From: an uncultured Actinomycetes bacterium
Lineage (GTDB): Bacteria > Actinomycetota > Thermoleophilia > RBG-16-64-13
Assembly (NCBI GenBank): GCA_947085635.1
Contig: CAMTXC010000010.1
Coordinates: forward strand, 18,151 to 82,150
DNA length: 64,000 nucleotides
Reading direction: 5' to 3'
The position numbers were made by a program, and so were the translations under genes. A model generated the notes under the pieces. The model had not been told where the DNA came from. It saw only the letters and a list, made by a program, of their open reading frames with translations, and ran no database searches. Positions 3,495 through 60,332 of this stretch are shown piece after piece. Position 1 is the first letter of the stretch. Each line of letters begins with the position of its first letter.

Positions 3495-5630
3495 CTAGAA
3501 GGCCATCGCAGTCTCGGCCGCCAAGCGCAGCAGCTTCTCTACGTCGCCCACGTACTTCATCACGTACACGCCGATAGGATCGAGCACGAGTTCCCAGTCT
3601 GGGAATACCACCACAGTCGTCGTCACTTCTTCAACTACCGCGGGGCCAACCACCACCATGCCGGGCTGGAGCTTTGCTCCATCGTAGACGTTGATGTCGC
3701 GGTAGCCATGTCCGTCCTCGAAGAATCCCGGGCGCTCGCAGCGCAGCGCCACCTCGGGGTCTGCGTTCTCGACCAGTTCGAGGCGAGGAAGTTCGGGTTT
3801 CGGCACACGCCCATAGACCGTAGACTCGATGTTGATGATCTCGGCGATATTGTCCCGCTCGGCATACGTGAAGAGCGCCTCGTGTCGCTTGTGAAAAGCC
3901 TCCACGATCTCCGGGAGCTTGTCCTGGGTAATGCGGAACACGGGGATATCCACCGCACACTCGTGCACTTGGTCCACATAGCGCATGTCCACCGACCGGC
4001 TCACGTACACGTCCTCGGGAGCGAAGCCCTCGGCGATCAGATCGGTGCGGCCGGTGGTCTCCATCTCCTCGAACCGAGCGTTCAGCACGTCGGCTTCGGC
4101 CTGGTCCATGCGCACGGCGTACGAAGACAAGTGATTGTGCTTCACGTCCGAGATGATCTCTCCGAACGCACAGAAGCCGGATGCGATCCGGGGCACGATG
4201 ACCTGGGTGATACCCAACTCCTCGGCCAGCTTCGCGGCGTGCGCAGCGCCGGCGCCGCCACCCGACACGATGGCGAAGTCCCGTGGGTCGTGGCCACGCT
4301 CGATGGAAACCCGCCGAATCCCGGCCACCATGTTGCTGTTGACCACTCGGAAGATCCCCAGAGCCGCCTTCTCGGTGGAGATACCGAGGGGCTTGGCCAC
4401 CTTGTCCTCGACCGCCTTGAAGGAAGCCGCCGCATCGATCTCCAGTCGACCACCCAACAGGTGATGCTGGTTCAGGTAACCCAGCACGACCAAGGCGTCG
4501 GTGACCGTGGGGTGCACGCCGCCCCGCTTGTAGCAGGCCGGTCCGGGCTCCGCACCGGCACTCTCGGGACCCACACGCAGGAGCCCCATGGAGTCGACCG
4601 CGGCGATGGAGCCGCCGCCGGCGCCCAGGGTTTCCACCTGAAGCATCGGAATGCCGATGCGGTACCGGCTGAAGTCGAAGTCCTTCATGGTGTTGGTGCG
4701 GCCATTCGCCGCAAGGGCGATATCGAAGCTCGTGCCGCCCATATCCACCGTGATGATGTTGTTCCGCCCCAGACGCTCACCGAAGTAGAGTCCGGCGGCA
4801 GGACCGGCTGAGGGGCCGGAGTTGAGCGCGTAGACCGGCTTGTTCGACAGCACCTCCCCCGACGCCAGCCCGCCGTTGGACTGTACGTAGAGTATCTTGC
4901 GGTCGTAGCCCATCTCCTTAAAGAAGTCTTCGATCCGCTGGATATAGCGCGAGAGGATGGGCCCCAGGTACGCGTTCGTCGTGGTAGTCGAGGTGCGGGT
5001 GTATTCTCGGATCTGCGGGAAGATATCCAGCGAGGTCGAGATGAAGAGATCGGGCAGCTCCTCGCGGACGATCTCCTCCACCCTCCGCTCGTGAGCGGGA
5101 TTGAGGAACGACCAGATCAGCGAGATGGCCACCGCTTGGGCGCCGCTCTTGCGTATCTTCTCCACGGCCGTGTACACGCTGGCCTCGTCGAGGGGGATGC
5201 GCACGCTCCCATCCGACAGGACGCGTTCCTTGACGCCCAGCCGCAGATAGCGCGGCGCCAGAATCTGCGCCTGCGGGTAGTCGGCGTCGTAGCGGTGGCC
5301 GTCCTCCTTGTGGCCCAGCCGGATCTCGAGGGAGTCCTCGTGGCCCGCGGTGCACAGAAGGGCCGTCAGGGATCCTTTGTGCTCCAAGAGAGCGTTCAGG
5401 GCCACTGTGGTTCCGTGGATGATCATGTCGCACCGAGCCAGGAACTCGGCCGGCGAAAGGCCTTGGTCTTGGGCGATCTGTTCCAGCCCGTCCCGAATGG
5501 CATCAGGCGGATTGTGCGGAGTCGACGACGTCTTGTACAGCTTGATCGATCCGGTGCCATCTTCGAGGATGAAGTCGGTGAAGGTGCCCCCAGTATCGAT
5601 GCCGAGGCGAAAGCCGGTTCCTCCCGCCAT
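3495..5630 (-). CDS. hyuA: hydantoinase/oxoprolinase family subunit A (N-methylhydantoinase A / acetone carboxylase beta-like)
   Basis: 711 aa; N-terminus MAGGTGFRLGIDTGGTFTDFIL is the classic HyuA ATPase start; last gene of the 8-gene minus-strand operon, 1-nt gap from hyuB. Confidence 0.85.
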   Translation of the reverse strand: MAGGTGFRLGIDTGGTFTDFILEDGTGSIKLYKTSSTPHNPPDAIRDGLEQIAQDQGLSPAEFLARCDMIIHGTTVALNALLEHKGSLTALLCTAGHEDSLEIRLGHKEDGHRYDADYPQAQILAPRYLRLGVKERVLSDGSVRIPLDEASVYTAVEKIRKSGAQAVAISLIWSFLNPAHERRVEEIVREELPDLFISTSLDIFPQIREYTRTSTTTTNAYLGPILSRYIQRIEDFFKEMGYDRKILYVQSNGGLASGEVLSNKPVYALNSGPSAGPAAGLYFGERLGRNNIITVDMGGTSFDIALAANGRTNTMKDFDFSRYRIGIPMLQVETLGAGGGSIAAVDSMGLLRVGPESAGAEPGPACYKRGGVHPTVTDALVVLGYLNQHHLLGGRLEIDAAASFKAVEDKVAKPLGISTEKAALGIFRVVNSNMVAGIRRVSIERGHDPRDFAIVSGGGAGAAHAAKLAEELGITQVIVPRIASGFCAFGEIISDVKHNHLSSYAVRMDQAEADVLNARFEEMETTGRTDLIAEGFAPEDVYVSRSVDMRYVDQVHECAVDIPVFRITQDKLPEIVEAFHKRHEALFTYAERDNIAEIINIESTVYGRVPKPELPRLELVENADPEVALRCERPGFFEDGHGYRDINVYDGAKLQPGMVVVGPAVVEEVTTTVVVFPDWELVLDPIGVYVMKYVGDVEKLLRLAAETAMAF

Positions 5631-5631
5631 C

Positions 5632-7386
5632 TCAGACCCCTTTCCTCAACGCGCCGGTCGCGGCCATGTCGATCGCGAGGGTATCGGGATCAACAACCAC
5701 GCCGTACTCCTCACGGGCCGCCTGCGCCGAGACATAGCCGTCACGCACGTCACGCTTCACAAGATCGATATCCCGCTCGAATGGATCACCTACGCCACCC
5801 CCGCCGGGATTCAGGTTGGCCACTCGCTCGCCCGGGTTGATGACGGTAATCACGTTCTCGCGGAAGATGTCCACCGTTCCGTCGGCGTTGTAACGCACCA
5901 TCCTCCCAACCTTTGCGTCGGTGTACTTGCTGTAGGCCCCCGCGGCCGACGGAGCCGGATACCGTCGGCCTTCGCCGAAGGTGACCACGGTCATGGGATC
6001 CCAAATGGGCTCCACCTCCCAGGCCGTGCCCGAACCGCCCCGGTGCCTGCCGGCGCCTCCCGAATCCTCCAGAAGGCTGTACCTGCTGATGATGATGGGG
6101 TAGGAGTACTCCATGATCTCCACGTCGCCTGAGGTGAGCGCACCAAAGCAACACTCCGGACCGCACGCCGGCCAGCCATCGGTGATGTTGGTCGCGCCGC
6201 CACCGGAGATGATGGTAGCCAGGATCATGGACACGTACTCCTCACCGGTCCGCCTGTCCCTACCGGCGATGTTGAGGCCGTTGGAGTGGCCCCAAGAGGC
6301 CACTGCGCGGTCGGGCATGGCCTGCTCCAAAGCCAGGCGCACGGCGTCGGTGATGGTCTCGGAAGGAGTGGTTGTGCTGTTGACGCTAGGCGCGGGCTCC
6401 ATCGCGTTCGTCAGCGTACCTGGAGGGCCCACGTCGACGGTGATGGATCTGTAGAGGCCCTCGTTGTAGGGCGGCTCCACCTGAGCAAACATCATGATGC
6501 CAAGGTACACGCCCGAAAGCGAGTTGGCGGCGTAGCTGTTGATGAAGTAAGGAATCTGAGGCGGCGACTCCAGCTCCACGTGCATGGTGTCGCTCTTAAC
6601 CGTGATGGTCGCGGCGATCTCCAGATCGCCGTAGCCGTGGCCGGCGTCCTCGACCACGCCCGAGCCCTTGTACACGCCGTCAGGAATCTCGGTGATCATG
6701 CGGCGCATGCGGCGCTCAGCCATACTCATGAGCTCTGCGCAGCAGGCCTGCACTGTCTCCACTCCGTACTTGTCGAGCATGGCAATGAGGTTGCGCTCGC
6801 CGATCTTGCAGGCCCCGAGTTGTGCCCGCATGTCGCCAGCTTGGTCGCGGCGCGAGCGCACGTTCGTCAGGATGAAGTTGACGATGTCGCGACGCTCCTT
6901 GCCCTTCTCCCAGATCTTGATCGGAGGGATGCGCAGACCCTCGGCATAGCTGTCCTTGGCGTCGGGGTTGTAGCCGGCCGGCACCGGTCCCCCGATGTCG
7001 GTCACGTGGCCCTTGGAGACAGTCCAGAAGACCAACTCGTCCTTGTAGAACACAGGCTTGTACATGCAGCAGTCGACGATGTGACTGCCACTCCAGGCGG
7101 GGTCATTGTGATACATGACGTCGCCCGGGTAGATCTCGTCGCCGAAGTAGCTCGCCACAGTGCGCATGGCCGGCATCAGCGAGCCCAGGTGAATGGGGAT
7201 ATCCTGGCCCTGCAGCACCATCTCGGGCTTGCCGTCGAAAATGGTGTTGGAGTAGTCGTGAGCGATGTTGAACACGCTTGACCGGGCGGTCTTCTCGATC
7301 GTCAGCGTCATCTCACGCTGTGTCGACTCGAGCACCCCCCGGACGACCGCCAATGTGATGGGGTCGACTCTTCCTGACTGCGTCAC
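5632..7386 (-). CDS. hyuB: hydantoinase B/oxoprolinase family subunit B
   Basis: 584 aa; start MTQSGRVDPITLAVVRGVLE... typical HyuB; 4-nt overlap with upstream tautomerase gene (7383). Confidence 0.85.
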   Translation of the reverse strand: MTQSGRVDPITLAVVRGVLESTQREMTLTIEKTARSSVFNIAHDYSNTIFDGKPEMVLQGQDIPIHLGSLMPAMRTVASYFGDEIYPGDVMYHNDPAWSGSHIVDCCMYKPVFYKDELVFWTVSKGHVTDIGGPVPAGYNPDAKDSYAEGLRIPPIKIWEKGKERRDIVNFILTNVRSRRDQAGDMRAQLGACKIGERNLIAMLDKYGVETVQACCAELMSMAERRMRRMITEIPDGVYKGSGVVEDAGHGYGDLEIAATITVKSDTMHVELESPPQIPYFINSYAANSLSGVYLGIMMFAQVEPPYNEGLYRSITVDVGPPGTLTNAMEPAPSVNSTTTPSETITDAVRLALEQAMPDRAVASWGHSNGLNIAGRDRRTGEEYVSMILATIISGGGATNITDGWPACGPECCFGALTSGDVEIMEYSYPIIISRYSLLEDSGGAGRHRGGSGTAWEVEPIWDPMTVVTFGEGRRYPAPSAAGAYSKYTDAKVGRMVRYNADGTVDIFRENVITVINPGERVANLNPGGGGVGDPFERDIDLVKRDVRDGYVSAQAAREEYGVVVDPDTLAIDMAATGALRKGV

Positions 7387-7604
7387 TTGCCGCCTCCGTG
7401 AGTGGACGTGGTACGCGCTCGCCTATCGGAGAAGAATTCGCCTCCGAAAGCCCAATGGTCCGGCTCGTACTCCTCGATCAGTACGTTCACCTGATCCGCC
7501 GTCGTGTCGATGGTGCGTACGAGGGCATCGGTGATCTCGCGGACGAGCGCCCGTTTCTGTTCGGGCGTACGACCGGTCAGCATTTTGACCCCTACTATTG
7601 GCAT
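7383..7604 (-). CDS. 4-oxalocrotonate tautomerase family enzyme
   Basis: 73 aa, begins MPIVGVKMLTGRTPEQKRALVREITDAL (catalytic Pro1 after Met, beta-alpha-beta fold size); GGAGGGGG SD. Confidence 0.7.
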   Translation of the reverse strand: MPIVGVKMLTGRTPEQKRALVREITDALVRTIDTTADQVNVLIEEYEPDHWAFGGEFFSDRRARTTSTHGGGK

Positions 7605-7615
7605 GCCCCCTCCGA

Positions 7616-7825
7616 TTACTGCAAAGTCGCAACGACCTGCCCGGGCAAGAGCTCCTGGCCTTCCTCCACCTCGATGGAGGCGACCACGCCTCCCGTCTCG
7701 GCCGCGAGTTCCTGCGTCATCTTCATGACTTCTAGGGTCATGACCACTTCGCCGGCTTCGATGGACTGCCCCTTGGTCACCTTGATCTCAATGATCCGAC
7801 CGGGCAGTACTGTGACGATATCCAT
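7616..7825 (-). CDS. biotin carboxyl carrier protein-like (biotinyl/lipoyl attachment domain only)
   Basis: 69 aa; hammerhead biotinyl domain with EVMKM lysine motif (canonical E[AV]MKM); GGGAGGGAG SD. Confidence 0.75.
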   Translation of the reverse strand: MDIVTVLPGRIIEIKVTKGQSIEAGEVVMTLEVMKMTQELAAETGGVVASIEVEEGQELLPGQVVATLQ

Positions 7826-7913
7826 CCCTGCTCTCCCTCCCTTGATTGGCTGCGATCCGGGCCGCCGCGCCGCCCAGCTGCCGGCGTCTGCGACCGTGTC
7901 TTCAGGTCAACCG

Positions 7914-8693
7914 CTACCCGGCAAAGGCCTCCGCGAGGGGCGCGGACTCGATACTCACGGCCGCGAAGGCCGCGCGGATGGCCCTAGCGAACTCGATGGC
8001 GTGAGGCGTGTCCCCATGCAGGCACACAGAATCGGGCACCAGGTCCACGTCGACGCCGGTCTCGTTCGAACGAACCTTGCCCTCGAGCAAGCACCGCACC
8101 GCGCGCGCGGCCATGGCTTCGGCGCCCCCCCCGACGTTATCGATGTCGTAGGTGAAGATAATCTGGCCGTTGTCACGCATGCCGCGATCGGGATAGAACT
8201 CCACCACCACGGGCACGCCCATCTGCCTGCCGACCTCGTATGTCGCCGACTGCCGCATGCAATACACGGGCAGCTCGCGACCGATGCTTGCGACCGTCTC
8301 GAGGATGAGGCGCGACATCTGTTCGTCCTCGGCAGCCATCATGTACAAGGAACCGTGCGGTTTTACGTGCTGAAGGGTTTCCCCGGCCAGCTCCAGAAAG
8401 AGCTTCAGAGCGCCTGTCTGGTAGATCAAATAGTCCCTGATCTCCTCGGGCCTGCACTGCATGGGTCGCCGGCCGAACCCCATGAGATCGGGGAAGCCCA
8501 CGTGTGCTCCCACACGTACGCCCTTGGCCCTGCACATCCGCACGGTCTCGTACATTACCCGAGGATCACCCGCATGGAAGCCGCAACCGACGTTGGCCGA
8601 AGTGATGAAGTCGACCATCTCCTCGTCCCGGCCCATCTTCCAGAGACCGAAGCTCTCCCCCATGTCGCAGCTGATGTCGATCTTCATACCCAT
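7914..8693 (-). CDS. pxpA: LamB/YcsF family lactam utilisation protein (5-oxoprolinase subunit A-like)
   Basis: Track ORF 7914..9059 has a junk Arg-rich N-terminus overlapping pxpC. Real protein starts MGMKIDISCDMGESFGLW... (LamB/PxpA N-terminus) at ATG 8693 or 8687, directly after the pxpC stop TAA at 8696-8698. Confidence 0.8.
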   Translation of the reverse strand: MGMKIDISCDMGESFGLWKMGRDEEMVDFITSANVGCGFHAGDPRVMYETVRMCRAKGVRVGAHVGFPDLMGFGRRPMQCRPEEIRDYLIYQTGALKLFLELAGETLQHVKPHGSLYMMAAEDEQMSRLILETVASIGRELPVYCMRQSATYEVGRQMGVPVVVEFYPDRGMRDNGQIIFTYDIDNVGGGAEAMAARAVRCLLEGKVRSNETGVDVDLVPDSVCLHGDTPHAIEFARAIRAAFAAVSIESAPLAEAFAG

Positions 8694-8695
8694 GG

Positions 8696-9673
8696 TTATT
8701 TGATCACCGATTGCTCCGACACCGCGGATTTGAAAGCGCCGCGAAGGGAGCGGGCCTCTTCCTCGGTCACCACGTTGAAGCGCACGCGATCGCCGGGCTT
8801 GGCCTGACCAAGCTTCCACAGGGAGGTAGAGACCACCGTGAACGGGTTGACGAAACCGCCGAGGCTGGGACCGTCGACCATCAAGATGATGGGCGTCTGG
8901 CCGCAGAAGTTCACCGAGCCGACCGAATAGCCGTAGTCGATGATGTTCGACGGGTCCGAACCGTTCTCCGGCAGCTTGTGATGAGCCTTGTGGCCGAACT
9001 CGAAGTCGGGACCTTCGATCCGGTACCCGGTGCGATCGGAGAGCGAGGAAACCTTCCACTCATGCGAAGTGAACTGAGCGATGTCGCCCTCGGTCAGCCA
9101 GTCGTCGTGGGGGCCGAGCAGAACCTCGACCTCCCACGAAGCCGCAAGGACCGGCCTCGTCGACTCGACGATCCGGCGCCCCGTGCATTCGGCGAGCGGC
9201 CGGACCGAGGGAGCGGTCTTGAGCACGGTCCCAGCCTTGGCGGCACCGCCGTCGATGCCCCCGATGTTGGCCTTGACGAAAGTGGAGCAGCTGCCCATCA
9301 CCCTCGGGATATCAATGCCGCCGGCCAGCGCGACATACGAGCGGCAGCCCTGTGCGGCAAACCCGAAGCCGAGGAGGTCGCCCGCCGACACCGGCACGCC
9401 CTCCCACATGGGTATGGGTTGACCGTTGACCTTGGGCTTCATGTCGGCCCCACCCACGGCTATGACCGTGTCGGCTTGGAATCGGATCTCCGGCCCGATG
9501 AACTGTACTTCGAGCCCAGGCGCGCCCGGGGCGTTGCCCGCGGCCAGATTGGTCAGCTGGAACGAGAGCGCGTCCATGGGACCCGATGGCGGGATCCCCA
9601 GAGACCAGAACCCTATGCGGCCCGGGTAGTCCTGGACGCTCGTCTCGAGACCTGGTTTGATGAACTGAAGCAT
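8696..9673 (-). CDS. pxpC: KipA/allophanate hydrolase subunit 2 family (5-oxoprolinase subunit C-like; biotin-dependent carboxyltransferase domain family)
   Basis: Start moved to ATG 9673 (MLQFIKPGLETSVQDYPGR..., GGAAGGAGG SD); cyclophilin-like KipA domain; 325 aa. Confidence 0.8.
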   Translation of the reverse strand: MLQFIKPGLETSVQDYPGRIGFWSLGIPPSGPMDALSFQLTNLAAGNAPGAPGLEVQFIGPEIRFQADTVIAVGGADMKPKVNGQPIPMWEGVPVSAGDLLGFGFAAQGCRSYVALAGGIDIPRVMGSCSTFVKANIGGIDGGAAKAGTVLKTAPSVRPLAECTGRRIVESTRPVLAASWEVEVLLGPHDDWLTEGDIAQFTSHEWKVSSLSDRTGYRIEGPDFEFGHKAHHKLPENGSDPSNIIDYGYSVGSVNFCGQTPIILMVDGPSLGGFVNPFTVVSTSLWKLGQAKPGDRVRFNVVTEEEARSLRGAFKSAVSEQSVIK

Positions 9674-9689
9674 CGTGACGTCCTCCTTC

Positions 9690-10601
9690 CTACTCGACCG
9701 TGGTTGTCGACGTCTCGCCCGCGGGAGAGACCGAGTACCCAACGTCCTTCTTCGCTTGGCTGAAGAAGGCTGTGTACCGGGCCACAGCGAAGAGCTCGTA
9801 ATCCACGACGTTGTAGGTATAGGTGCCGGCCGCGACCTCTTGTTCGATCTCGATGAATTCGCGGGCGTCTATGGGCACGAACTTCACTCGGTCGCCCGGC
9901 TTCAGCAGAACAGGCGACTTGGCGAACGGCGCAAACTTCTGGGCTCCGTCCCAGATCGGCACCGGCGTGCGGCCGAAGATCTGATAGCCGCCCGGCGTAT
10001 TGACCGGGTAAATAGCCGTGCAGGAGCCGCCCATGCCCACGGTGCCCTGGGGCGTCCACGTACGCGGGGGGTTGTACTTGGGCACGGTGAGCACGTACCG
10101 GGGGTCCAGGGACATCATGAAGGGCAGGCCCGGCCAGAAGCCCACTGCGGCCACCCAGTATTGAGGCGTAGAGTGCACCTTGATGAGTTCGCGCACGTCA
10201 CGCAGACCGTTCAGGCGGGCGGTAGCCTCCGGGTTGGGCTCGATCAGCTTGATCTTCTTGCGGTAGTCGTCCACAGCTGCCTTCGTCCACGGGTCGTCGT
10301 AGCAGCAGGGCAGCTCCACGAGCCGTGACGGCAGGGTGATGTCGGCCGTCGAGCCGAGTGAGGCCACCCGCTCGGCCAGAGCCGCCTTCAGTGTGGCGAA
10401 GTCGGTCTCCTCGGGCTCGTAGTGGACCAGGAGGGTAGCGAACGACGGCACCGTCTCGACCACGCCCGGTATCGGCTCGTTGGCGACCGTCTCCGCCAGC
10501 CCGAGGGCCTTGAAGTTCAGATCGAGGTTCATCTCGTCTCCGAACTCCAGCAGCAGGTAGCGGTCGCCGGAGTAGAGATAGCGCGGCTCCTCGAAGATCA
10601 T
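9690..10601 (-). CDS. pxpB: KipI/allophanate hydrolase subunit 1 family (5-oxoprolinase subunit B-like) with roughly 60-aa C-terminal extension
   Basis: 303 aa; MIFEEPRYLYSGDRYLLLEFGDEM... KipI fold; 4-nt overlap with accC stop; longer than usual KipI (about 220-250 aa). Confidence 0.8.
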   Translation of the reverse strand: MIFEEPRYLYSGDRYLLLEFGDEMNLDLNFKALGLAETVANEPIPGVVETVPSFATLLVHYEPEETDFATLKAALAERVASLGSTADITLPSRLVELPCCYDDPWTKAAVDDYRKKIKLIEPNPEATARLNGLRDVRELIKVHSTPQYWVAAVGFWPGLPFMMSLDPRYVLTVPKYNPPRTWTPQGTVGMGGSCTAIYPVNTPGGYQIFGRTPVPIWDGAQKFAPFAKSPVLLKPGDRVKFVPIDAREFIEIEQEVAAGTYTYNVVDYELFAVARYTAFFSQAKKDVGYSVSPAGETSTTTVE

Positions 10602-11971
10602 TGGGCGCTCCTTCTTCCGGTTCCATTGGCGAACAAGCGTTGCAGATAGTAGGTGTCGGTCTCACCGTCCGCGAAGGCCGGATCGGCCATGATGCCCTTG
10701 TGCAGGCCGATGTTGGTGGCGATCCCCTCGACCACGAAGCCGTCGAGCGCGTCGCGCATGCGAGAGATAGCCTGCGTCCGATCGGCTCCCCAGGTGATGA
10801 GCTTCGCGATCATGGGATCATAGTAGTAGGAGACCTCGTAGCCTGCGCTCACCCCGGCGTCCACGCGCACGCCGTCGCCTGTGGGGAGCTCCAAGGCGGT
10901 GATCTTGCCGGGGGAGGGCAAGAAGTTCTTGTCTGGGTCTTCCGCGTAGATGCGGCACTCGATCGCGGCCCCCGTTGTCGTGACCTCGTCCTGCGCGAAA
11001 CCGAGGGGCTCGCCGGCCGCCACCTTGAGCTGCAGCTGGACCAGGTCGCGGCCGGTGACCATCTCGGTGACCGCGTGCTCTACCTGTATACGAGTGTTCA
11101 TCTCCAGGAAGTAGTACGACTCGTCGGCGTCCATGAGGAACTCGACCGTGCCCGCATTGACGTAGCACACCGACTCAGCCGCCTTGACCGCGTCGGCCCC
11201 CATCCGCGCGCGGGTCTCGGGCGACAACCGGGGAGAGGGCGACTCTTCCACCACCTTCTGATATCGGCGCTGGATGGAGCACTCCCGCTCGAAGAGATGC
11301 ACCACCTTCCCGCCCTTGTCGGCGATGACCTGGAACTCCACGTGACGCGGCTCCGGGATGAAGCGCTCGAGGTACAGCAAGGGGTCGCCGAATGCGGCTT
11401 GGGCCTCACGATGAGCCCGCTTGAGGTTCTCCTCCAGCTGTTCGGGCCCGTTGATGACGTGCATGCCGATGCCCCCGCCTCCGGCCGCGGCCTTTACGAT
11501 GACCGGGTAACCCAGCTTCGCAGCCATCTCGCCGATGCCGTCGTGCAGGTCGCGCGAGGCCTCAGAACCCGGGATCAAGGGCACACCGGCCTGCCCGACG
11601 ACCAGGCGGGCGTGGGCCTTGTCGCCCATCGTGCGGATGGACTCGTGTCCGGGGCCGACGAACACATAGCCCTCGGCCAGGCAGCGCTCGGCAAAGATGA
11701 AATTCTCGGCCAGGAAGCCGTATCCCGGATGGACGGCGTCGACCTTCGCCACCCGGGCCACCTCGAAGAGCCTGTCTTGGTTCAGATAGCTCTGCGGGGC
11801 CGGAGGCGGTCCGATATTGTGGGCCTCGGTGGCCATGGACACGTGGGGCGCGTCCTTGTCGGCATCACTGTACACCGCGACCGTTGCGATACCGAGGGCC
11901 TCGCACGCCCGGATCACGCGGCAGGCGATCTCCCCCCGATTCGCGACAAGAACCTTGTTGAACACCAGCAC
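10598..11971 (-). CDS. accC: biotin carboxylase (ATP-grasp)
   Basis: KVLVANRGEIACRVIRACEALGI..., ATP-grasp and BC C-terminal domain; GTG at 11971 or more likely GTG at 11965 (AGGAGG 8 nt upstream). Confidence 0.85.
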   Translation of the reverse strand: MLVFNKVLVANRGEIACRVIRACEALGIATVAVYSDADKDAPHVSMATEAHNIGPPPAPQSYLNQDRLFEVARVAKVDAVHPGYGFLAENFIFAERCLAEGYVFVGPGHESIRTMGDKAHARLVVGQAGVPLIPGSEASRDLHDGIGEMAAKLGYPVIVKAAAGGGGIGMHVINGPEQLEENLKRAHREAQAAFGDPLLYLERFIPEPRHVEFQVIADKGGKVVHLFERECSIQRRYQKVVEESPSPRLSPETRARMGADAVKAAESVCYVNAGTVEFLMDADESYYFLEMNTRIQVEHAVTEMVTGRDLVQLQLKVAAGEPLGFAQDEVTTTGAAIECRIYAEDPDKNFLPSPGKITALELPTGDGVRVDAGVSAGYEVSYYYDPMIAKLITWGADRTQAISRMRDALDGFVVEGIATNIGLHKGIMADPAFADGETDTYYLQRLFANGTGRRSAQ

Positions 11972-12139
11972 CCCCTCCTGGATGAGTCCGCATAGGTGGG
12001 ACCCACGCGTAGGACTCGGAAACCGAAAACACTACGGATCTAGGCACGCGCAATAGGCCCCACCCCCTCGTGGATGCCCGCAGGCGCAGATCGGTGGCCA
12101 AACGCCCGTATCGCCCCGGGCCGGTTCACCTGCGGATGT

Positions 12140-12232
12140 CCCCCGAGTGCGTGACCCGCGACCGGGCACAACGCACCGCTCGCTGAGTGTACGAGAGCGC
12201 ACTATCTCAGGGCCATAGTCGCCTAGAACAAC
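12140..12232 (-). repeat. conserved bipartite upstream element, copy A (second copy at 22651-22732)
   Basis: Top strand 12184-12232 TGAGTGTA-N16-CAGGGC-c-ATAGTCGC-ct-AGAACAA plus CCCCCGAGTGCG at 12140-12151. Identical blocks and identical spacing at 22684-22732 and 22651-22662. Confidence 0.5.
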
Positions 12233-12259
12233 AACAGCACGCCGCTTTGTGCCCCCGGA

Positions 12260-14092
12260 CTATTTCGGCCGTTCGCGCTTCTCCCGGCGCCGCGTCGCGG
12301 CCAGCTCCCCGGGGAGCACCACCGCCGGATACCCTACCAGCAGATTGCCGAGCCCGCTGCCGGGGTCGATCTCCGCCGCGACGTCCACGCCCGTGAGCGC
12401 GGACCCAGCGCCCGCAAGGGCGGCGGGGCCAAGCGAATCAAGCATCGCCTCCGCACGGAACGCGAGGTACAAGTCGGCGACGACCCGTGTGGTATCGAGC
12501 GACGACCCCAGCAACGCCTCCGCCTTCCGGAGCCGGTACCGCAGGGTGTTCGGGTGGATGAAGAGCCGGCTCGACGCCTCTCGAACGTCTCGGTCGACCT
12601 GCACATACATCCGCATTGTCCGCAGCAGGGTGTCGTTGTGCTCTTTGTCGTGGATGGCGAGCGCCGATAGGCCCGCATCGGCCAGGGCCCGCAGCCGCGA
12701 GACCTCGAGACCGAACAAGAACGAGGCCGTCGGGCCCAGGTCGAAGAACAGGCGCACGCGGTGGTCGTCGCCGTCGCGACGCGCCACCGCCAGAGCCTCC
12801 TGAGCCTCCGCATACGACCTCGGCATCGCCTCCGTGGCTCGATGTATCGCAGATGCGCCCAGTGCCAGATCCGACCCTGGAAACACACCGAGCAACCGCT
12901 CGCGCAGCTCCTCCAACACAGTGCGCAGCTCGGTCGGGGTCCTCGCACCGAGCTGGGCGGCCGCGACCACCACCCCCGAACGGACCATCGACAGTATGGG
13001 CGCCTTCCGGAGGGAGAAGAAACTCCCCACCGCGTCCTCGAGATCGTTCAGGAGATCACTCTGCTTCGGCTCCGAAGGGCGGGAGGGAGGGTCGGCGCGG
13101 CCCCGGTCACCGGGGCCACACATGAGCACCAGGTAGTCCAGGACCGGATCGAACCCGAAATGCATCGCCTGCTCCCGCAGGTCGTCTGGCCGGCCCAGGC
13201 CGAGCACCAGATCGTCGAGCAGCCCTCCCCGCATCTGCCGCCACAGCTGCTCGGCTTCCCGGCTCTTCATGGCCTCGAGCGATAGCAGCTTCTGCGCGTA
13301 CGACGCGATGACCACGGTGAACTCGGGAACGTGTTCTTTCTCTGAGTAGGCAATCGCCAAGACCCGCTCGAGGCGACCGTTGCTCCACACATCCCTGAAC
13401 AGTACCTGCATGCCGTCCACGGCGTGGACCCGCAAGATGTCGGACGCCGGGTCGTCCAGGCGCGGCTCGTAAGCCTCCCAGATGCGGGCTACCGCCTCTG
13501 GAGGCATCCGAGGGCCCTTCTCGGTCATACAAGCTACTCTGCCCACGTGATCGAACAACACCACCGTGGCCGAGAGCAACACGGCCAGGCTGGACACCAG
13601 GTAGTCGGTGCCCCGCTCCTCGAGCAACGCGCTGAGCAGGTGGGCCTGCACCGACAGCCGGCGTCGGAGAAGGTACACGTTGCGGTTCACCAACGAGTCA
13701 AGGATGAACGACGTCACTGCCTTGAACGGGGTCTCGAAAGGCACTTCGAACACCGCAAACCCGATTGCGTCGGCCTCTTCCAGGAGCGCCGCCGGAGTCT
13801 GGTGCATGTAGATGCCTACCCCGAGCCCGAGGGCGGACATGCCGCCCCCGGCCAGGACCCGGACCAGCCTGCTCTGCAGCTCCGGACTGTCCCGTATGCT
13901 CATTCCCGTCGTGAGCAGGACGTCTCCCGGATTGATCCAACGCGTAGGGTCGGGTATCTCAGAGGTGTGCACGCCCAACACCAGCCTGCCCACTCCTTGA
14001 TGCCCGGCAACCAGCCGCAGACCGAGGTCGCTTTCGGCGAAGAGATCCTCGACCGTCAGCCTGCTGGCAGCTTGCGGGTGGGTCGAACGCAC
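12260..14092 (-). CDS. PucR family transcriptional regulator
   Basis: 610 aa; PucR N-terminal LTVEDLF..LGLRLVAG motif, GGDEF-like middle, C-terminal HTH (IHPNTLRYRLRKAEALLG); GTG start. Confidence 0.75.
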   Translation of the reverse strand: MRSTHPQAASRLTVEDLFAESDLGLRLVAGHQGVGRLVLGVHTSEIPDPTRWINPGDVLLTTGMSIRDSPELQSRLVRVLAGGGMSALGLGVGIYMHQTPAALLEEADAIGFAVFEVPFETPFKAVTSFILDSLVNRNVYLLRRRLSVQAHLLSALLEERGTDYLVSSLAVLLSATVVLFDHVGRVACMTEKGPRMPPEAVARIWEAYEPRLDDPASDILRVHAVDGMQVLFRDVWSNGRLERVLAIAYSEKEHVPEFTVVIASYAQKLLSLEAMKSREAEQLWRQMRGGLLDDLVLGLGRPDDLREQAMHFGFDPVLDYLVLMCGPGDRGRADPPSRPSEPKQSDLLNDLEDAVGSFFSLRKAPILSMVRSGVVVAAAQLGARTPTELRTVLEELRERLLGVFPGSDLALGASAIHRATEAMPRSYAEAQEALAVARRDGDDHRVRLFFDLGPTASFLFGLEVSRLRALADAGLSALAIHDKEHNDTLLRTMRMYVQVDRDVREASSRLFIHPNTLRYRLRKAEALLGSSLDTTRVVADLYLAFRAEAMLDSLGPAALAGAGSALTGVDVAAEIDPGSGLGNLLVGYPAVVLPGELAATRRREKRERPK

Positions 14093-16954: not shown

Positions 16955-17806
16955 CTACCGGATCTCTTCCTGGATTCCCCGTCCGCGCGCACGTCTTCTC
17001 ACGCTGATTGCAATAAGAATCGCGAACACTGCTAATAAAGCGAACGAGAACAAGGTCGACAGCACCCCGAAAGCAAACAGGTTGGGGTGAATCTCAATGC
17101 CGAACTGGCCGTAGATCGTCAATGGCAGCGTGGCTTGCGGACCGCCCGCGAACATCGTGCGCGGGAACTCATCGTAACTCAAGGTGAACGCGATGAGCAG
17201 CGAGGTCAGGATTCCCGGGAACACCAGCGGGAAGGTGATCTTCCTGAAAGTTGTGGCAGCACCCGCGCCCAAGCTGGCGGACGCCTCCTCGACCGAACGA
17301 TCGAAACGGTTGAAGATGGCCAGCATCACGAGGAACGAGAACGGGAAGGTGTAGATCACGTGCACGATGTAGCCCGTAAGCCACCAGTGCTTAGTAATCT
17401 CGAGCTGGTTGCAGACCAGCGCCACGCCGAGTCCGACCAGGACACCCGGCACGATGAAGCCCAGCATGACCAGATAGAAGAGCACGCCCAGGTGCTTGAA
17501 TCGGTGCCGGAATGCCTGCGCGGTGATCGTGCCGAGCACGGTCGCCGTCACCATGACCATGAAGGCCAGAATCAACGAACGCACCAGCCCGGGGCCAACC
17601 GGAAGAGGCGCCGCCCGAGAGGTCCCGATGAGGCCGAGAAGCTGCTGATACCAGTACACTGAGAAACCGCGCAGCGGAAACTGCGGTCCGCCATTCGAGG
17701 GCTGGAAGCTTAGGATGCCCATCACAATGAAGGGTCCGTAGAGGAAGAGAAGGAAGAGCGCGTAGTAGGCGGTCAGCACGCCCTTCAAGAAGGGGGACTT
17801 GTACAC
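16955..17806 (-). CDS. ABC transporter permease (PotC-like)
   Basis: Start moved to GTG 17806 (GGAAGGAGG SD, 7-nt spacer) giving VYKSPFLKGVLTAYYALF...; 6 TM; EAA-like loop LGAGAATTFRKITFPL. Confidence 0.75.
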   Translation of the reverse strand: MYKSPFLKGVLTAYYALFLLFLYGPFIVMGILSFQPSNGGPQFPLRGFSVYWYQQLLGLIGTSRAAPLPVGPGLVRSLILAFMVMVTATVLGTITAQAFRHRFKHLGVLFYLVMLGFIVPGVLVGLGVALVCNQLEITKHWWLTGYIVHVIYTFPFSFLVMLAIFNRFDRSVEEASASLGAGAATTFRKITFPLVFPGILTSLLIAFTLSYDEFPRTMFAGGPQATLPLTIYGQFGIEIHPNLFAFGVLSTLFSFALLAVFAILIAISVRRRARGRGIQEEIR

Positions 17807-17808
17807 TG

Positions 17809-18708
17809 CTACACCTCCTTCCTCAGGTCGGTGATGCGCAGCAGACCGACTATGACCAGGGCGATCACGACGGTGAGCACGACGCCCGCCACCGAAGCGA
17901 AGGCCCACTTCAGCGACCCGACTTGGGTGACGATGACATTGCCCAGCAGGTTCACCTTCCGTCCCGACAGAGACGCGGGTGTGGCGAATTCCCCGAGCAC
18001 CAGAACCGACACGAAAATCGCCCCCGTCACCAGGCCGGGACGGCTCAGTGGCAACAAGATGTCCTTGAAGATCCGCCCGGTGCCGGCGCCCAGATCCCGC
18101 GCTGCCTCGATCACACTTGGGTCGATGCGGCTGAGCATGAACGTGACCGGACCAACAACGAAGACCAAGTAGATCTGGATCATCCCGATGATCATCCCCA
18201 CCTCCGTATAGAGGAGGAAGGAGAGCGGCTCAGTAACAAGGTGCGCCTTCATGAGAAGGATATTCAAGGCCCCGTGCTGCCCGAGCATGGGCTTCCAGGC
18301 AACGATACGCACGAGGAACGAGGTCCAGAAGGGGATGATCGCAAGCACGAGCAGGACGGTCTGCACCGTGTTGCTGCGGACGAACAGACCGATGTAGATG
18401 GCCACCGGCACGGCAATCACAAAGGTCGCGGTCAGAACTATCAGCCACACCCGAATGGTGTTCCACAGGGCTGAGTAATAGACCGATTGCGTGAAGAACG
18501 CCTGCCAGTTGTCGAGCGTGAGGACGGGTTTGATGTCGTAGCTGGTCTGGGTCCAGAAACTCACGTAGATCATCATCAAGAGCGGGGTGATGAGGAAAAG
18601 GATCATCCACGCCGACCCTGGAACGAGCTGCCAGTAGCGGGCCATCCGGCCTATAAGGCTCGAGCGGCGCCTGCGCGCCTTCTCCGACCCCGCCCTTGTC
18701 TCGACCAT
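17809..18708 (-). CDS. ABC transporter permease (PotB-like)
   Basis: Start at ATG 18708 (MVETRAGSEKARRRRSSLIGRMARYWQLVPG...), 12 nt after ATPase stop; EAA loop EAARDLGAGTGRIFKDILLPLSRP. Confidence 0.75.
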   Translation of the reverse strand: MVETRAGSEKARRRRSSLIGRMARYWQLVPGSAWMILFLITPLLMMIYVSFWTQTSYDIKPVLTLDNWQAFFTQSVYYSALWNTIRVWLIVLTATFVIAVPVAIYIGLFVRSNTVQTVLLVLAIIPFWTSFLVRIVAWKPMLGQHGALNILLMKAHLVTEPLSFLLYTEVGMIIGMIQIYLVFVVGPVTFMLSRIDPSVIEAARDLGAGTGRIFKDILLPLSRPGLVTGAIFVSVLVLGEFATPASLSGRKVNLLGNVIVTQVGSLKWAFASVAGVVLTVVIALVIVGLLRITDLRKEV

Positions 18709-18719
18709 CCCCCGCTTGC

Positions 18720-19871
18720 TCACTCCATCACCTCCAAGTAGACGAAGGCTTTGTTGGCAGGCCACCACAAGAGATAGTCGGTGCCTCCCTCGAGCCGCTT
18801 CGCCTTACGATGGTGAAGATGGTACTGTGCCTCGAAGTGCTGGCCGTCGGGAAGATCGAACAGGTAGGTCACGGTCGCCCCCGAGTACTCGTGGCTGACA
18901 TGCTTGCAGACGATGGAACTGTAGCCCTCCGGGAGCGGGGTGCCGATCTCCTCGACGTCCACCCGGTCGTAACCCACGCAGTAGGTGGCCGGCCCTGCGG
19001 CTGCACTCTCGCCAGGCGGCATCGGGAACGAGAAACCATCGCCTACGAAGGCCCCGCCTTCCACCCGACCGCCGACTAGGTTGAACCGGCTGAGAGCGAA
19101 GGCCACGTGAGCGGTCTTCGGCCGCGCAAACACCTTCTCCGGAGCGTCGAACTGGGCGATCTGACCCCGCTCGAGCACGATAATGCGATCGGCCATCGCC
19201 AGTGCCTCTTCTTCGTTGCCGGTCACGTGCACAAAGGTAGCGCCGAGCCGTGTCTGCAGCTTACGCAGCTCGACCTTCATGGAAGCCCGGAGGTTGGCGT
19301 CGAGCGCCCCCAAAGGCTCATCGAGCAGGACGATCTGCGGATCAGTAGCCAGGGTTCGCGCCAGGGCTACCCGCTGCCTCTGCCCGCCCGAGATCTGATT
19401 CACCCGGCGATCTTTGAGACCTTCGAGGCCAACGAGTTCCAGCATCTCGTCGACCTTGCGATCAGCAGCCCCGGCGCTAAGCCGGTTGTAGGCCCGGTTG
19501 CGGAGTCCGTATGCAATATTGTCCCCCACCTTGAGGTGAGGGAACAAAGCGAAGTTCTGAAAGACCAGACCGACATTGCGCAGGTGAGCGGGCACCCCCA
19601 CCATGTTGCGCCCGCCGATGTCGATCTCGCCCTCGGTCGGGTCCTCGAAGCCCGCGATAAGGCGCAAGAGCACGCTCTTGCCGGAGCCGCTCGGGCCGAG
19701 GACCGTCACGTACTCGCCCGCGCAGACGTCGAGATCCACGTTGCGGAGCACGACCTTGTCCCCGTAGCATTGGGTGACGTTCCGTACCTGCAGCAGGGGT
19801 TGCCCAGGTGCCCCGCCGGGCTCAACCTGCGCCGCGCCGGCCGCAACAGTCGCCATTCCTTCAGCGCTCAA
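18720..19871 (-). CDS. ABC transporter ATP-binding protein (PotA-like), copy 1
   Basis: Walker A GPSGSGKS, signature ISGGQRQRVALARTL, Walker B LLDEPLGALD, C-terminal TOBE-like domain; start TTG 19871 or ATG 19856. Confidence 0.8.
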   Translation of the reverse strand: MSAEGMATVAAGAAQVEPGGAPGQPLLQVRNVTQCYGDKVVLRNVDLDVCAGEYVTVLGPSGSGKSVLLRLIAGFEDPTEGEIDIGGRNMVGVPAHLRNVGLVFQNFALFPHLKVGDNIAYGLRNRAYNRLSAGAADRKVDEMLELVGLEGLKDRRVNQISGGQRQRVALARTLATDPQIVLLDEPLGALDANLRASMKVELRKLQTRLGATFVHVTGNEEEALAMADRIIVLERGQIAQFDAPEKVFARPKTAHVAFALSRFNLVGGRVEGGAFVGDGFSFPMPPGESAAAGPATYCVGYDRVDVEEIGTPLPEGYSSIVCKHVSHEYSGATVTYLFDLPDGQHFEAQYHLHHRKAKRLEGGTDYLLWWPANKAFVYLEVME

Positions 19872-19912
19872 AGCCTCTCCCTGTCAGATGTTATCAGCAC
19901 ACTCAGTGTGTC

Positions 19913-21019
19913 CTAGGCTGAGACGACGTGCCCATCACTGGGCAGCCACGTGACACACACCGGCGTTCCGGCGGCGAACGCCCGGCCGTACTTGTCCACG
20001 TGACTCTCGAGCTCAACCGTGATCGTCTCGCAGATGTCGACTTCGTAGACCACCAAGGAACCCACCACTGTCTCCGCCCGTATCTTGCCCAGCAGGACGT
20101 TGCCCCCGTACATGTCCCGAACTGCGGGATCCTGGGCGCTCGCCTCTGGGTACAACTCCATGACCTCCGACGGGATCACGAAGTCAACGGAGCTGCCTAC
20201 GGGTAGATCCTCCTCGACCAGACGGCCGCGAAGCGGGCCGAATTCAGTGTGGAGGGTGGCAATGTCGCCGTCTCGCGCGGTGATCGTGCCAACGATGATC
20301 GAGTTCCGGCCGATGAAACGCGCCACGAAACCGGTGCGCGGCCGGGTGTAGAGTACCTCAGGCTCGGCCACCTGTTCGATGCGGCCGTTGTTCATGACCA
20401 CGATGCGGTCGGCCATGGCCAGAGCCTCGGACTGGGCGTGCGTGACGAACACGAACGTAATGCCCAGGCTCTTCTGTAGATAGCGCAGCTCGGTCTGGAT
20501 GCGTTTTCTGAGATCGGCGTCGAGGGCGCCCAACGGTTCGTCGAGGAGCAAGATGTCAGGCTCCACGACCAGGCCGCGGGCGAGCGCGACGCGCTGCCTC
20601 TGACCGCCGGAGAGGCCGTCGAAGGCGCCGTCGGCGATGCCAGTAAGGTCTAGCTTCTCCATGATGTCGTCGGCGCGTGCCCGGCGTTCCTTTTGCGGCA
20701 CCTTCTTCACCACGAGCCCGTACTCGATGTTCTGCCTCACATTCATGTGAGGGAAGAGGGCGTAACTCTGGAAGATCATAGATGTGGGCCGCCGCTCAGG
20801 GGGCAGATCGTTGACGACCCGCCCCCTGATGGCGATGGTCCCTCCGGTCGGGTCCTCGAACCCGCCGATCATCCTCAAGGTTGTGGTCTTACCACAACCG
20901 GACGGCCCGAGAAGAGCGATGAACTCACCCTTGTCTACCTGAAGGTTGAAATCGTCGACCGCGACGGTCCCGTTCTCAAAGACCTTCGCGACGTGCGATA
21001 GTTCAAGGTCGTATGCCAC
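19913..21019 (-). CDS. ABC transporter ATP-binding protein (PotA-like), copy 2
   Basis: Start moved to GTG 21019 (GAGGAGAG SD) to avoid 24-nt overlap with SBP gene; GPSGCGKTT, LSGGQRQRVALARGL, LLLDEPLGALD. Confidence 0.8.
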   Translation of the reverse strand: MAYDLELSHVAKVFENGTVAVDDFNLQVDKGEFIALLGPSGCGKTTTLRMIGGFEDPTGGTIAIRGRVVNDLPPERRPTSMIFQSYALFPHMNVRQNIEYGLVVKKVPQKERRARADDIMEKLDLTGIADGAFDGLSGGQRQRVALARGLVVEPDILLLDEPLGALDADLRKRIQTELRYLQKSLGITFVFVTHAQSEALAMADRIVVMNNGRIEQVAEPEVLYTRPRTGFVARFIGRNSIIVGTITARDGDIATLHTEFGPLRGRLVEEDLPVGSSVDFVIPSEVMELYPEASAQDPAVRDMYGGNVLLGKIRAETVVGSLVVYEVDICETITVELESHVDKYGRAFAAGTPVCVTWLPSDGHVVSA

Positions 21020-21060
21020 CAGCCGCTCTCCTCGGATCGGTGCTTCGGCTACCCAAACGT

Positions 21061-22374
21061 TTATGCGTTCAGGAACTCGTCCCACTTCTGGACGTAGTAG
21101 TCGTAGTTATCGGGGAACTGGTGCCACACACCGATGTTCGCGGTACGCTCATCGAGGGTCCCCCCGTCGCGCACGTCGCCCTCGACGATACCGTTGAAGG
21201 TCTCGCCCTTCCACGGCGCGCCGTTGTACCAGAACGCGTACGCATCGGCCTTGTCGGCGTCGGTGAAGGCCTGCTCGATGGTGGTGGTGGGCGAGTAGTA
21301 GCCCTGCTCCGACACCGTGATGGACGGAGGGCCGCTCAGCCAGTAGTCGGCGTAGGCCATGACGGCTTCCAGGTTTGGCGTGCCCGCCAGCGGGGTGATT
21401 CCGATGGCCCACGCCCGGTAGCCCTCTTTAGGCACCGCGTACTTGCACGTGGTGCCCTGAGCCTTGACGGCCATGACGGCCGGCTGCCAGGCGTCGGCCA
21501 CCACCACTTCCTTCGACGCCATGAGGTTCACGAGTTCGCCGAAGTCGCCCCACAGAGAGCGGAACTGGCCTTGCTTCTTGAGATCGATGATCCACTTGAT
21601 GGCCGCGTCGACGTTCTCATTGGACTCATTGCCGGGGTTGGTGGACTTCAAGAGACCCAAGGTATCCATGGCCATGAAGACTTCGGGCATGGCTATCAGA
21701 GGGTCGGTGTTCAGGGCCGACTTGCCTTTCCACTTGGGGTCGAAGATGGCCGTCCAGGTGTTGGCTTCTGCATCGGAAACGACATCCGGATTGTAGCCGA
21801 TGCTGTCGAAGTTGTAGACCGTGGGCACCATCCACAGCTTCGTGTGGTTGGCATCGGTCCAGATCTGGTCGGCGATGCTCTTGCTCGCGGCGAACTTGGC
21901 CGGAGTCGGATCTGTGAACACCGGGCGGATCGACTTCCAGTTGGCCATCGTCGACGGGTCGACGGCAAGCGCCTTGTTGGTCTGAATGATCGGGGGAAGG
22001 CGCTCACCGATGGTCTCCCAGCAGTCCCACTCGGGGTTGCCTTCGGGGGCGCTGATGATGCGGGTCTGCGCATCGGGGAACGTAGTCGCCGTACCGGTCG
22101 CCGCCTTCACGCCCGACTTGGCCTTGAACTCGGCCAGGATGCGGTCCTGCACCGTCACCGAAAGACCAGTGGTGCGGAGTTCTTGCTCAGCCAGCGGCTT
22201 GCCCGCTGCAGTGGTGGTGGTCTCACCGCCGCCGCCACAGCCCGCGAGGATGGCGCCGCCGCCGCCGCTAAGGATGGCCACTCCGGACACCCCGGCCGCC
22301 CGAAGGAAGGACCTGCGGCTCAGCCGCTCCTCCCACAGCTTGCGTTCAAGGCTCTTTTCGTTCTTCTCACTCAT
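21061..22374 (-). CDS. ABC transporter substrate-binding lipoprotein (PotD/PotF family 1 SBP) with Tat signal
   Basis: SRRSFLRAAGVSGVAIL twin-arginine motif, lipobox LAGCGG, Thr/Gly-rich linker, SBP_bac_1 body; AGGAGGGG SD. Confidence 0.8.
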   Translation of the reverse strand: MSEKNEKSLERKLWEERLSRRSFLRAAGVSGVAILSGGGGAILAGCGGGGETTTTAAGKPLAEQELRTTGLSVTVQDRILAEFKAKSGVKAATGTATTFPDAQTRIISAPEGNPEWDCWETIGERLPPIIQTNKALAVDPSTMANWKSIRPVFTDPTPAKFAASKSIADQIWTDANHTKLWMVPTVYNFDSIGYNPDVVSDAEANTWTAIFDPKWKGKSALNTDPLIAMPEVFMAMDTLGLLKSTNPGNESNENVDAAIKWIIDLKKQGQFRSLWGDFGELVNLMASKEVVVADAWQPAVMAVKAQGTTCKYAVPKEGYRAWAIGITPLAGTPNLEAVMAYADYWLSGPPSITVSEQGYYSPTTTIEQAFTDADKADAYAFWYNGAPWKGETFNGIVEGDVRDGGTLDERTANIGVWHQFPDNYDYYVQKWDEFLNA

Positions 22375-22650
22375 CGAATCCCCTCCTGTTCCGCTTCACT
22401 GGACGCACGTCGCAGGACTCCCTACGGAGTTCTACGCCGACCCACCCCGCCCTACTCTCTCCGCAATCTCTGCCCCCCGGTCATACGCGTTGACATGCCA
22501 GCGAGGGAGTATCCCTTCGAACGTGACTGGAGCCGCGCGGGGATTCCTTGCGAGTCGGACGACAGAAGGCAATCAAAGAACAACCCGTCGCTCACGGCTA
22601 CCCCCTCTCCCGTCCCGTAAGGCACGGCCCCCCATATCAGATCGGCGACA

Positions 22651-22732
22651 CCCCCGAGTGCGCCGGCCGCCGAAGTCTATTCGTGAGTGTAGGTTAGCGG
22701 TGTGGGGCAGGGCTATAGTCGCACAGAACAAT
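22651..22732 (-). repeat. conserved bipartite upstream element, copy B (partner of 12140-12232)
   Basis: Top strand 22684-22732 TGAGTGTA-N16-CAGGGC-t-ATAGTCGC-ac-AGAACAA and CCCCCGAGTGCG at 22651-22662; 35/49 identity with copy A. Confidence 0.5.
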
Positions 22733-22774
22733 AACCAGAAGCCAGTTTGTTCCAAGGAACCAGGTCCGATGATA

Positions 22775-28412: not shown

Positions 28413-28719
28413 CCCGGCTGTTGTACACTGGGTCGGCCTACGCCTGACGGCTCCGCGCCTCGTAGGAGTACGCGAGCTGCGGAGACACCGCCGATCCAGG
28501 CCAGGCGAGGAGTTCGGGTACCTCAGCGGGATCCGTCGACGCTATGAGCAGGCGGTTCCCTCGCGTGGAGCACATTCCGCGGCCTGCTCTCGAGGACCGC
28601 ATTCGGGGTGTGAGTCAAGTCCAGCGCAACCGTTGAACGGTTGTGGCTGGACTTTTCTGTTCTGTGGGAAGACAGACTGCCGTCGGGCGGAGCACACGCA
28701 GCACAAGGTAGGGAGGGTC

Positions 28720-60148: not shown

Positions 60149-60332
60149 GTATCTACCTCCTGGCACGGTAGGGTTCTCTCGGGACAAACCGGACGCGCAC
60201 CGGCTCGCCCTCCCCCCGGGTGCGGGCCGCCACCTCCTGGCCGCCCTGGTGCCTCTCAGACTACCCTCTGTTTCGGAATACGGTCCAGTGGTAGCATGCA
60301 CACATGTCGCCACTACTCACAGCGTCGTGCAC

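Follow-up and report, generated by a model that had tools for sequence, protein, structure and literature searches.

What kind of control element is repeated ahead of two catabolic operons in an uncultured Thermoleophilia bacterium, and which factor would read it? We addressed this question in a stretch of 64,000 nucleotides (hereafter the window, meaning the whole stretch that was analysed), for which the original prediction had described a bipartite element, made of a 49-bp and a 12-bp block, as an operator or promoter shared by two co-regulated operons.

The repeated element and its gene setting

Alignment within the window showed that copies A (12184-12232) and B (22684-22732) of the 49-bp block are identical at 35 of 49 bases without gaps, exactly as had been claimed. 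If up to 3 mismatches are tolerated, the core TTGTTCT-NN-GCGACTATRGCCCTG (minus strand) is found at two places in 64 kb, which are copies A and B only, with 0 matches in 100 dinucleotide-preserving shuffles. The 12-bp block is also where it had been placed, as an exact CGCACTCGGGGG at 12140-12151 and again at 22651-22662. Only its distances from the 49-bp block, given as 33 and 22 bp, differ from the gaps of 32 and 21 nt that we counted, being off by one or following another convention.

Gene calls and the Pfam scan agreed with the gene context proposed for both copies. Copy A is found between a PucR-family gene (12260-14092, minus strand) and a biotin carboxylase operon on the same strand, and copy B occupies the interval from an amidohydrolase gene to an ABC-transporter operon. 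The genes concerned are the following:

12260-14092, minus strand: PucR-family regulator gene, encoding the candidate binding protein (PucR N-terminal domain PF07905, GGDEF-like PF17853, HTH_30 PF13556)
3495-11971, minus strand: target operon A (biotin carboxylase, CT_C_D, CT_A_B, LamB/YcsF and hydantoinase B, from Pfam)
16955-22374, minus strand: target operon B (substrate-binding protein and two ABC ATPases, plus two permeases named by synteny with the related contig L002)
60333-61988, 48 kb away: second PucR paralog, divergent from an operon of aldehyde dehydrogenase and class-III aminotransferase genes, in a GabR-like arrangement

In operon A, the biotin carrier protein and the last gene (3495-5630, hydantoinase A) were named solely by synteny with L002. 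The substrate-binding protein of operon B (21061-22374, 437 aa) had no identical entry in the protein search, its best match being a protein of 454 aa with 85% identity, whereas the PucR protein did have an identical entry; the N-terminus or gene call of the substrate-binding protein may differ in the source record. Beside the second PucR paralog, the intergenic region at 60147-60332 contains repeated CATGTG/TGCATG motifs, possibly that paralog's own operator.

The motif is contained in a catabolic island (3495-36506) with hydantoinase B, a biotin-dependent carboxylase with LamB/YcsF and two cyclic amidohydrolases. The island further holds genes for an asparaginase, an isochorismatase-family hydrolase and an aldehyde:ferredoxin oxidoreductase, together with succinyl-CoA-ligase-like, HpcH/citrate-lyase-like, MmgE/PrpD and fumarate-reductase-like flavoprotein genes. 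This gene set suggests that a cyclic amide or N-heterocycle is broken down to a dicarboxylate.

Anatomy, conservation and specificity of the unit

Aligning the sites with their flanks allowed us to read the full unit, which on the minus strand is T[A/G]GT-N8-ACAA-N15-TTGT-N8-ACTAT[A/G]G-N21-TA[C/G/A]ACT(CA). Its first four blocks make up two inverted repeats of 16 bp, each reading TnGT-N8-ACnA, which are mirror images of each other, are separated by a 15-bp gap and have their centres 31 bp apart. As this distance is about three helical turns, both repeats would lie on the same face of the DNA. Together the two repeats span 47 bp, the operator, and the whole unit measures 79 bp. The 49-bp block described before corresponds to the promoter-proximal inverted repeat plus the -10-like hexamer, but the second, mirror-image repeat, 15 bp further upstream, had been missed. 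Likewise, the "U-rich run" noticed ahead of each copy is a real sequence, but it represents the T-rich inner part of the operator (N15 and TTGT) and not a terminator tail. The parts of the two copies, with the starts that would follow from them, are:

12247-12262, minus strand: copy A, distal repeat IR1, TAGT-ccgggggc-ACAA, with blocks invariant across sites and a varying N8
12216-12231, minus strand: copy A, proximal repeat IR2, TTGT-tctaggcg-ACTA, with conservation continuing as ACTATGG to 12213
12186-12191, minus strand: copy A, -10-like hexamer TACACT, 21 nt past ACTATGG
near 12179, minus strand: copy A, predicted transcription start, with a leader of about 208 nt to the accC start at 11971
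22747-22762, minus strand: copy B, distal repeat IR1, TGGT-tccttgga-ACAA
22716-22731, minus strand: copy B, proximal repeat IR2, TTGT-tctgtgcg-ACTA, with conservation continuing as ACTATAG to 22713
22686-22691, minus strand: copy B, -10-like hexamer TACACT, at the fixed distance after IR2
near 22679, minus strand: copy B, predicted transcription start, with a leader of about 305 nt to the substrate-binding-protein ATG at 22374

The first three bases of the distal repeat of copy A are the TAG stop codon of the PucR-family gene. A weak third copy had been suggested at 28658-28666; we rejected it, as it is a 9-mer that has no ACTAT or TAnACT partner and fails the full template.

We looked for relatives of this locus in a collection of 5.8 billion proteins, where the PucR protein has one ortholog at 80% and one at 63% identity, the other matches being paralogs in different gene contexts. 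Gene order on the contigs that carry the orthologs (L002 and L006) is as in the window, and four further contigs were reached through homologs of the substrate-binding protein and the biotin carboxylase. Among the relatives are 'Thermoleophilia bacterium' GCA_054603895.1, whose biotin carboxylase is 96% identical to that of the window, and 'Actinomycetes bacterium SKS1.bin6' GCA_021802965.1, besides other assemblies. Results showed that ten sites match the unit in register, the comparative basis being a handful (about six) of closely related uncultured genomes. Five are A sites, located before accC-type operons (window, L030, L002, L006 and L031), and five are B sites, located before the transporter operon or a preceding short-chain dehydrogenase gene (window, L026, L002, L006 and L027).

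All ten sites read nnGT-N8-ACAA-N15-nTGT-N8-ACTAT, with TA[C/G/A]ACT following 22-23 nt on; CTGT replaces TTGT in the two most distant ones, and the spacer after the proximal repeat is 21 nt except in one site, where it is 20 nt. The copies occupy orthologous positions in every relative and are always oriented toward the downstream operon. Over the 79-bp unit, 7 substitutions separate copy B of the window from L026 and 5 separate copy A from L030, and these changes between close relatives fall at non-block positions in 12 of 12 cases (P = (53/79)^12 = 0.008 by our calculation). A PucR-family gene is found directly upstream of every A site with enough flank, with orthologs at L002, L006 and L030, and in L006 the unit extends into the PucR coding sequence.

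We also asked how specific the motif is. A dyad template with up to 3 mismatches matched, in the window and four other loci, these sites only, compared with about 0.05 matches in shuffles, and a relaxed template gave 0 matches in shuffles and none in the PucR paralog loci. Those loci (L007, L008 and L029) have other gene contexts and lack the motif, the second PucR paralog locus of the window (60333-61988) has no copy of it, and a search of the window ahead of the PucR gene for an autoregulatory site revealed no repeat. When one genome per species was scanned (185,579 genomes), the strict motif was found at the two sites of the SKS1.bin6 MAG and in twelve other matches, mostly in AT-rich unrelated genomes, about 35 chance matches being expected by calculation. 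The sole extra match in a high-G+C genome, an Anaerolineae MAG (L012), was taken as chance considering its unrelated context, as was the single match in the JGI metagenomes (L025), located within an AT-rich coding region of unrelated context. With these two matches inspected and the others likewise taken as chance, the species genomes and JGI metagenomes gave no additional lineage above chance, and these scans, with two copies per available genome, indicate that the motif is not a dispersed repeat and is confined to a small lineage. In conclusion, the repeated motif is a real, conserved and specific regulatory element.

Promoter model and candidate regulator

We propose that both copies are activator-dependent promoters under the adjacent PucR-family regulator, a reading to which we give a probability of roughly two in three. 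In 10/10 sites TA[C/G/A]ACT follows the proximal repeat at a fixed distance, and TANNNT is the -10 consensus of high-G+C Gram-positive bacteria. A consensus scan found no sigma-70-type -35/-10 pair and the sites share no conserved -35 hexamer, but a missing -35 is expected of an activator-dependent promoter in a high-G+C organism. The promoter would thus consist of the 47-bp operator and, 21 nt downstream, a putative -10 hexamer of the TANNNT type (TA[C/G/A]ACT), with no recognisable -35. Transcription starting about 7 nt past the hexamer would place the operator at about -83 to -37, the working position of PucR-type activators. Conservation is stronger in ACTAT[A/G]G than in the block that mirrors it, a difference that the dyad model alone does not explain and that we attribute to overlap with the -35 region. 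With predicted leaders of about 208 and 305 nt, which is long, there could be promoters nearer to the genes.

By considering the genes around the sites, a candidate regulator can be named. Other than PucR-family genes, no regulator was found in the conserved 20-kb neighbourhoods of L002 and L006, and the only other DNA-binding regulator among the Pfam-scanned ORFs of the window is the second PucR paralog. As the adjacent PucR gene is the sole neighbouring regulator, we assign the sites to its protein with about two-thirds confidence, inferring binding from adjacency and co-conservation. Inside each repeat the block centres are 12 bp apart, which fits a MabR-like helix-turn-helix geometry. The protein, probably in the form of a dimer of dimers or some larger oligomer, would bind both repeats and would activate rather than repress: on sensing a catabolic intermediate, it would bring RNA polymerase to both promoters, jointly switching on the uptake operon and the biotin-dependent carboxylase/hydantoinase operon. 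The comparison of relatives supports the earlier reading of an operator or promoter with a PucR neighbour and co-regulated operons, although its anatomy needed three corrections, concerning the extent of the 49-bp block, the place of the 12-bp block and the third copy.

The same operator-promoter architecture could be read by a different factor encoded elsewhere, of the GntR type or the second PucR paralog (60333-61988). That paralog is present in the window, the identity of the binder is deduced from gene position, and TnGT...ACnA is a generic signature, typical also of GntR-family operators. Such a factor seems unlikely to us, considering that the scanned ORFs of the window and the 20-kb neighbourhoods of L002 and L006 hold PucR-family regulators alone, and that the second paralog has an aminotransferase/aldehyde dehydrogenase operon of its own, in GabR-like divergence, where the motif is absent. 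The original prediction had also raised the idea of an alternative sigma factor, whose promoter would use ACTAT[A/G]G as -35 and TAnACTCA as -10. This would account for two conserved blocks at a fixed distance with a variable spacer between them, and for the absence of a canonical -35. It is nonetheless quite improbable, because the 21-22 nt that separate ACTAT from TAnACT are too long compared with the 16-19 nt typical of sigma-70-family promoters and because three more invariant upstream blocks, which form a dyad with ACTA, would be left unexplained.

The long untranslated regions predicted for both operons, as well as the conserved stretches in the downstream leaders, might instead point to a cis-regulatory RNA, a riboswitch or leader transcribed by both operons. 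We regard this as very improbable. Rfam gave no relevant match with the whole window at gathering thresholds, nor with both intergenic regions at E<=10, and the two motif regions folded no better than shuffles (z -0.28 and +1.42). If the spacers paired as a hairpin, N8 would match at 3-6 of 8 and N15 at 0-5 of 7 positions including G-U, which is about chance. Moreover, the blocks lie upstream of the sole promoter-like hexamer and, in L006, inside upstream coding sequence. Considering the non-complementary spacers, the Rfam result and the lack of a fold signal, we take the element as a protein site and not an RNA, and the same evidence bears out the earlier view that a structured RNA fits less well. 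Short invariant AT-rich blocks, fixed-length spacers that are free to vary and dyad symmetry at the DNA level are, judged from the sequence, the signature of a protein-binding site. A palindrome that recurs in intergenic DNA could finally be a dispersed REP- or MITE-type repeat with no regulatory role, and the original prediction had asked whether the motif occurs at many unrelated loci. This is not the case, as the 64 kb contain just two copies and the entire SKS1.bin6 MAG just two strict matches. Moreover, the orthologous position of the copies in every relative, pointing to the downstream operon, and the free variation of the sequence between blocks leave such a repeat a negligible chance.

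Regulation by the adjacent PucR-family protein can be compared with known systems. [quoted passage not shown] The activator of gabTDP in Corynebacterium glutamicum, GabR, is an octamer with two 21-bp inverted repeats between -87 and -23 (PMC7652997), whereas PutR/PrcR, AdeR and MabR have operators made of a single inverted repeat of 17-24 bp (PMC7652997; PMC13599513; PMC11617747). MabR forms dimers and tetramers, and its helix-turn-helix pairs fit adjacent major grooves of the palindrome (PMC11617747). The Bacillus subtilis PucR box has been reported as non-palindromic (PMC7652997).

The present site resembles that of GabR, which is also a PucR-type regulator whose gene adjoins the target operon, in its layout with two repeats and, if our model is right, in activation. 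On the other hand, the sequence is different, the repeats are 16 bp here and 21 bp there, and GabR does not have the GGDEF-like domain of the present PucR protein. In addition, one regulator is proposed here for two separate operons, and its gene is co-directional and not divergent. With PutR/PrcR, AdeR and MabR the site shares dyad symmetry, read in those systems by the C-terminal HTH_30 domain of dimers or tetramers, but they use single repeats and here two are arranged as mirror images with a fixed 15-bp gap. The PucR box of B. subtilis, reportedly given the consensus WWWCNTTGGTTAA by Beier et al. in 2002, is the target of the founding family member and also serves nitrogen-compound catabolic operons, and several of the distal blocks here read TTGGTT or CTGGTT. 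This consensus has no match with up to 2 mismatches in either copy (in the window it gives 5 matches compared with 2.15 expected), and it was rejected as the identity of the motif.

Binding sites are known for few PucR-family regulators only. Our results provide a base-resolution prediction of a two-repeat operator, and of a small regulon, for an uncharacterised PucR member from uncultured Thermoleophilia. The regulon would pair an ABC uptake system with a biotin-dependent carboxylase/hydantoinase operon, and this pairing ties both operons to one pathway, probably cyclic amide or N-heterocycle breakdown. The result is useful for annotation and regulon reconstruction and is unsurprising, as it concerns an ordinary kind of control element.

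The 12-mer and other features of the leaders

The 12-bp block, which had been counted as part of a bipartite element, lies outside the operator, about 18-40 nt downstream of the predicted start, and is variable in spacing and lineage-specific. Its instances in the window are:

12140-12151, minus strand: copy A 12-mer CGCACTCGGGGG, in the predicted leader at about +29 to +40
22651-22662, minus strand: copy B 12-mer CGCACTCGGGGG, in the predicted leader at about +18 to +29
60213-60224, minus strand: possible third 12-mer with one mismatch (CGCACCCGGGGG), in the leader of the aldehyde dehydrogenase/aminotransferase operon divergent from the second PucR paralog

For the window pair, a shared 12-mer in the first 60 nt of the leader, downstream of the motif, was obtained in 0 of 2000 shuffles. 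The two sites of L002 have a different exact 12-mer in common, GCGTGCCAGGGG, in analogous places, and for this pair a 12-mer shared within the first 60 nt was seen in 0.1% of shuffles. Across genomes the A and B copies have at most 6 nt in common, and the L006 leaders gave no significant exact match, just a looser gapped resemblance. The A copy of the Thermoleophilia MAG carries the 12-mer with one substitution, as CGCACCCGGGGG. The variant at 60213-60224 is preceded by GGCGGCC, as in copy B, and lies 33 nt after a TAGTCT hexamer; alone this third instance is marginal (p about 0.03-0.08). Gene conversion of a longer tract is made less likely by the differences in flanks and spacing between the copies. 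A common RNA partner was considered and rejected, as the predicted partners differ between the leaders, and no complement of the 12-mer, G-U allowed, was found elsewhere in the window.

As the 12-mer is identical within a genome, is replaced by another shared 12-mer in a relative and is possibly present in a third operon, it might be the target of a co-evolving trans-acting factor, either a small RNA that pairs through its seed, a protein that binds RNA or a second, "global" regulator that binds DNA past the start site. We advance this tentatively, rating it at well below even odds. If true, several PucR-linked catabolic operons for nitrogen compounds would be placed by this factor under a second, shared level of control. 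A 12-mer that is shared within genomes and differs between them is the sole hint in our data of something not yet described.

Leader folding and covariation had also been proposed as a check. Folding of both parts of the transporter leader gave z-scores near zero, the motif regions being shuffle-like as described, and the consensus fold of the leader part adjoining the transporter gene, from four genomes, was weak and showed no more than possible anti-SD pairings. Small leader ORFs, inspected by eye, were found as candidates in single genomes and were rejected, since in relatives the frame is shifted or the start codon is absent.

Upstream of the substrate-binding-protein gene (22375-22545, minus strand) about 110-170 nt are conserved in four genomes (window, L026, L002 and L006), for example CGGGGGGCAGAGATTGC. 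This stretch has two C-rich anti-SD-like and two G-rich SD-like runs, so that alternative pairings are possible, and no Rfam match. A run of 122 nt in the window (22577-22698, minus strand) is perfectly identical to positions of about 9569-9690 in the Thermoleophilia MAG (L026), spanning the -10 hexamer and the first 115 nt or so of the transporter-operon leader. Around it, 3.2 kb are just 86% identical and contain no other perfect run of at least 60 nt. At its end there is a weak hairpin and then GUUGUUCUUU; the run of 122 nt is not conserved in L002, and its fold z-score is about 0. In the accC leader, about 90 nt (positions of about 11985-12075) are present in the window and in L002 and absent from a close MAG (L030, 3981-3994). 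The ribosome-binding region is repeated on either side of this segment, as CATCCACGAGGGGGTG and CATCCAGGAGGGGGTG, which looks like a gain by duplication or a loss by deletion between direct repeats.
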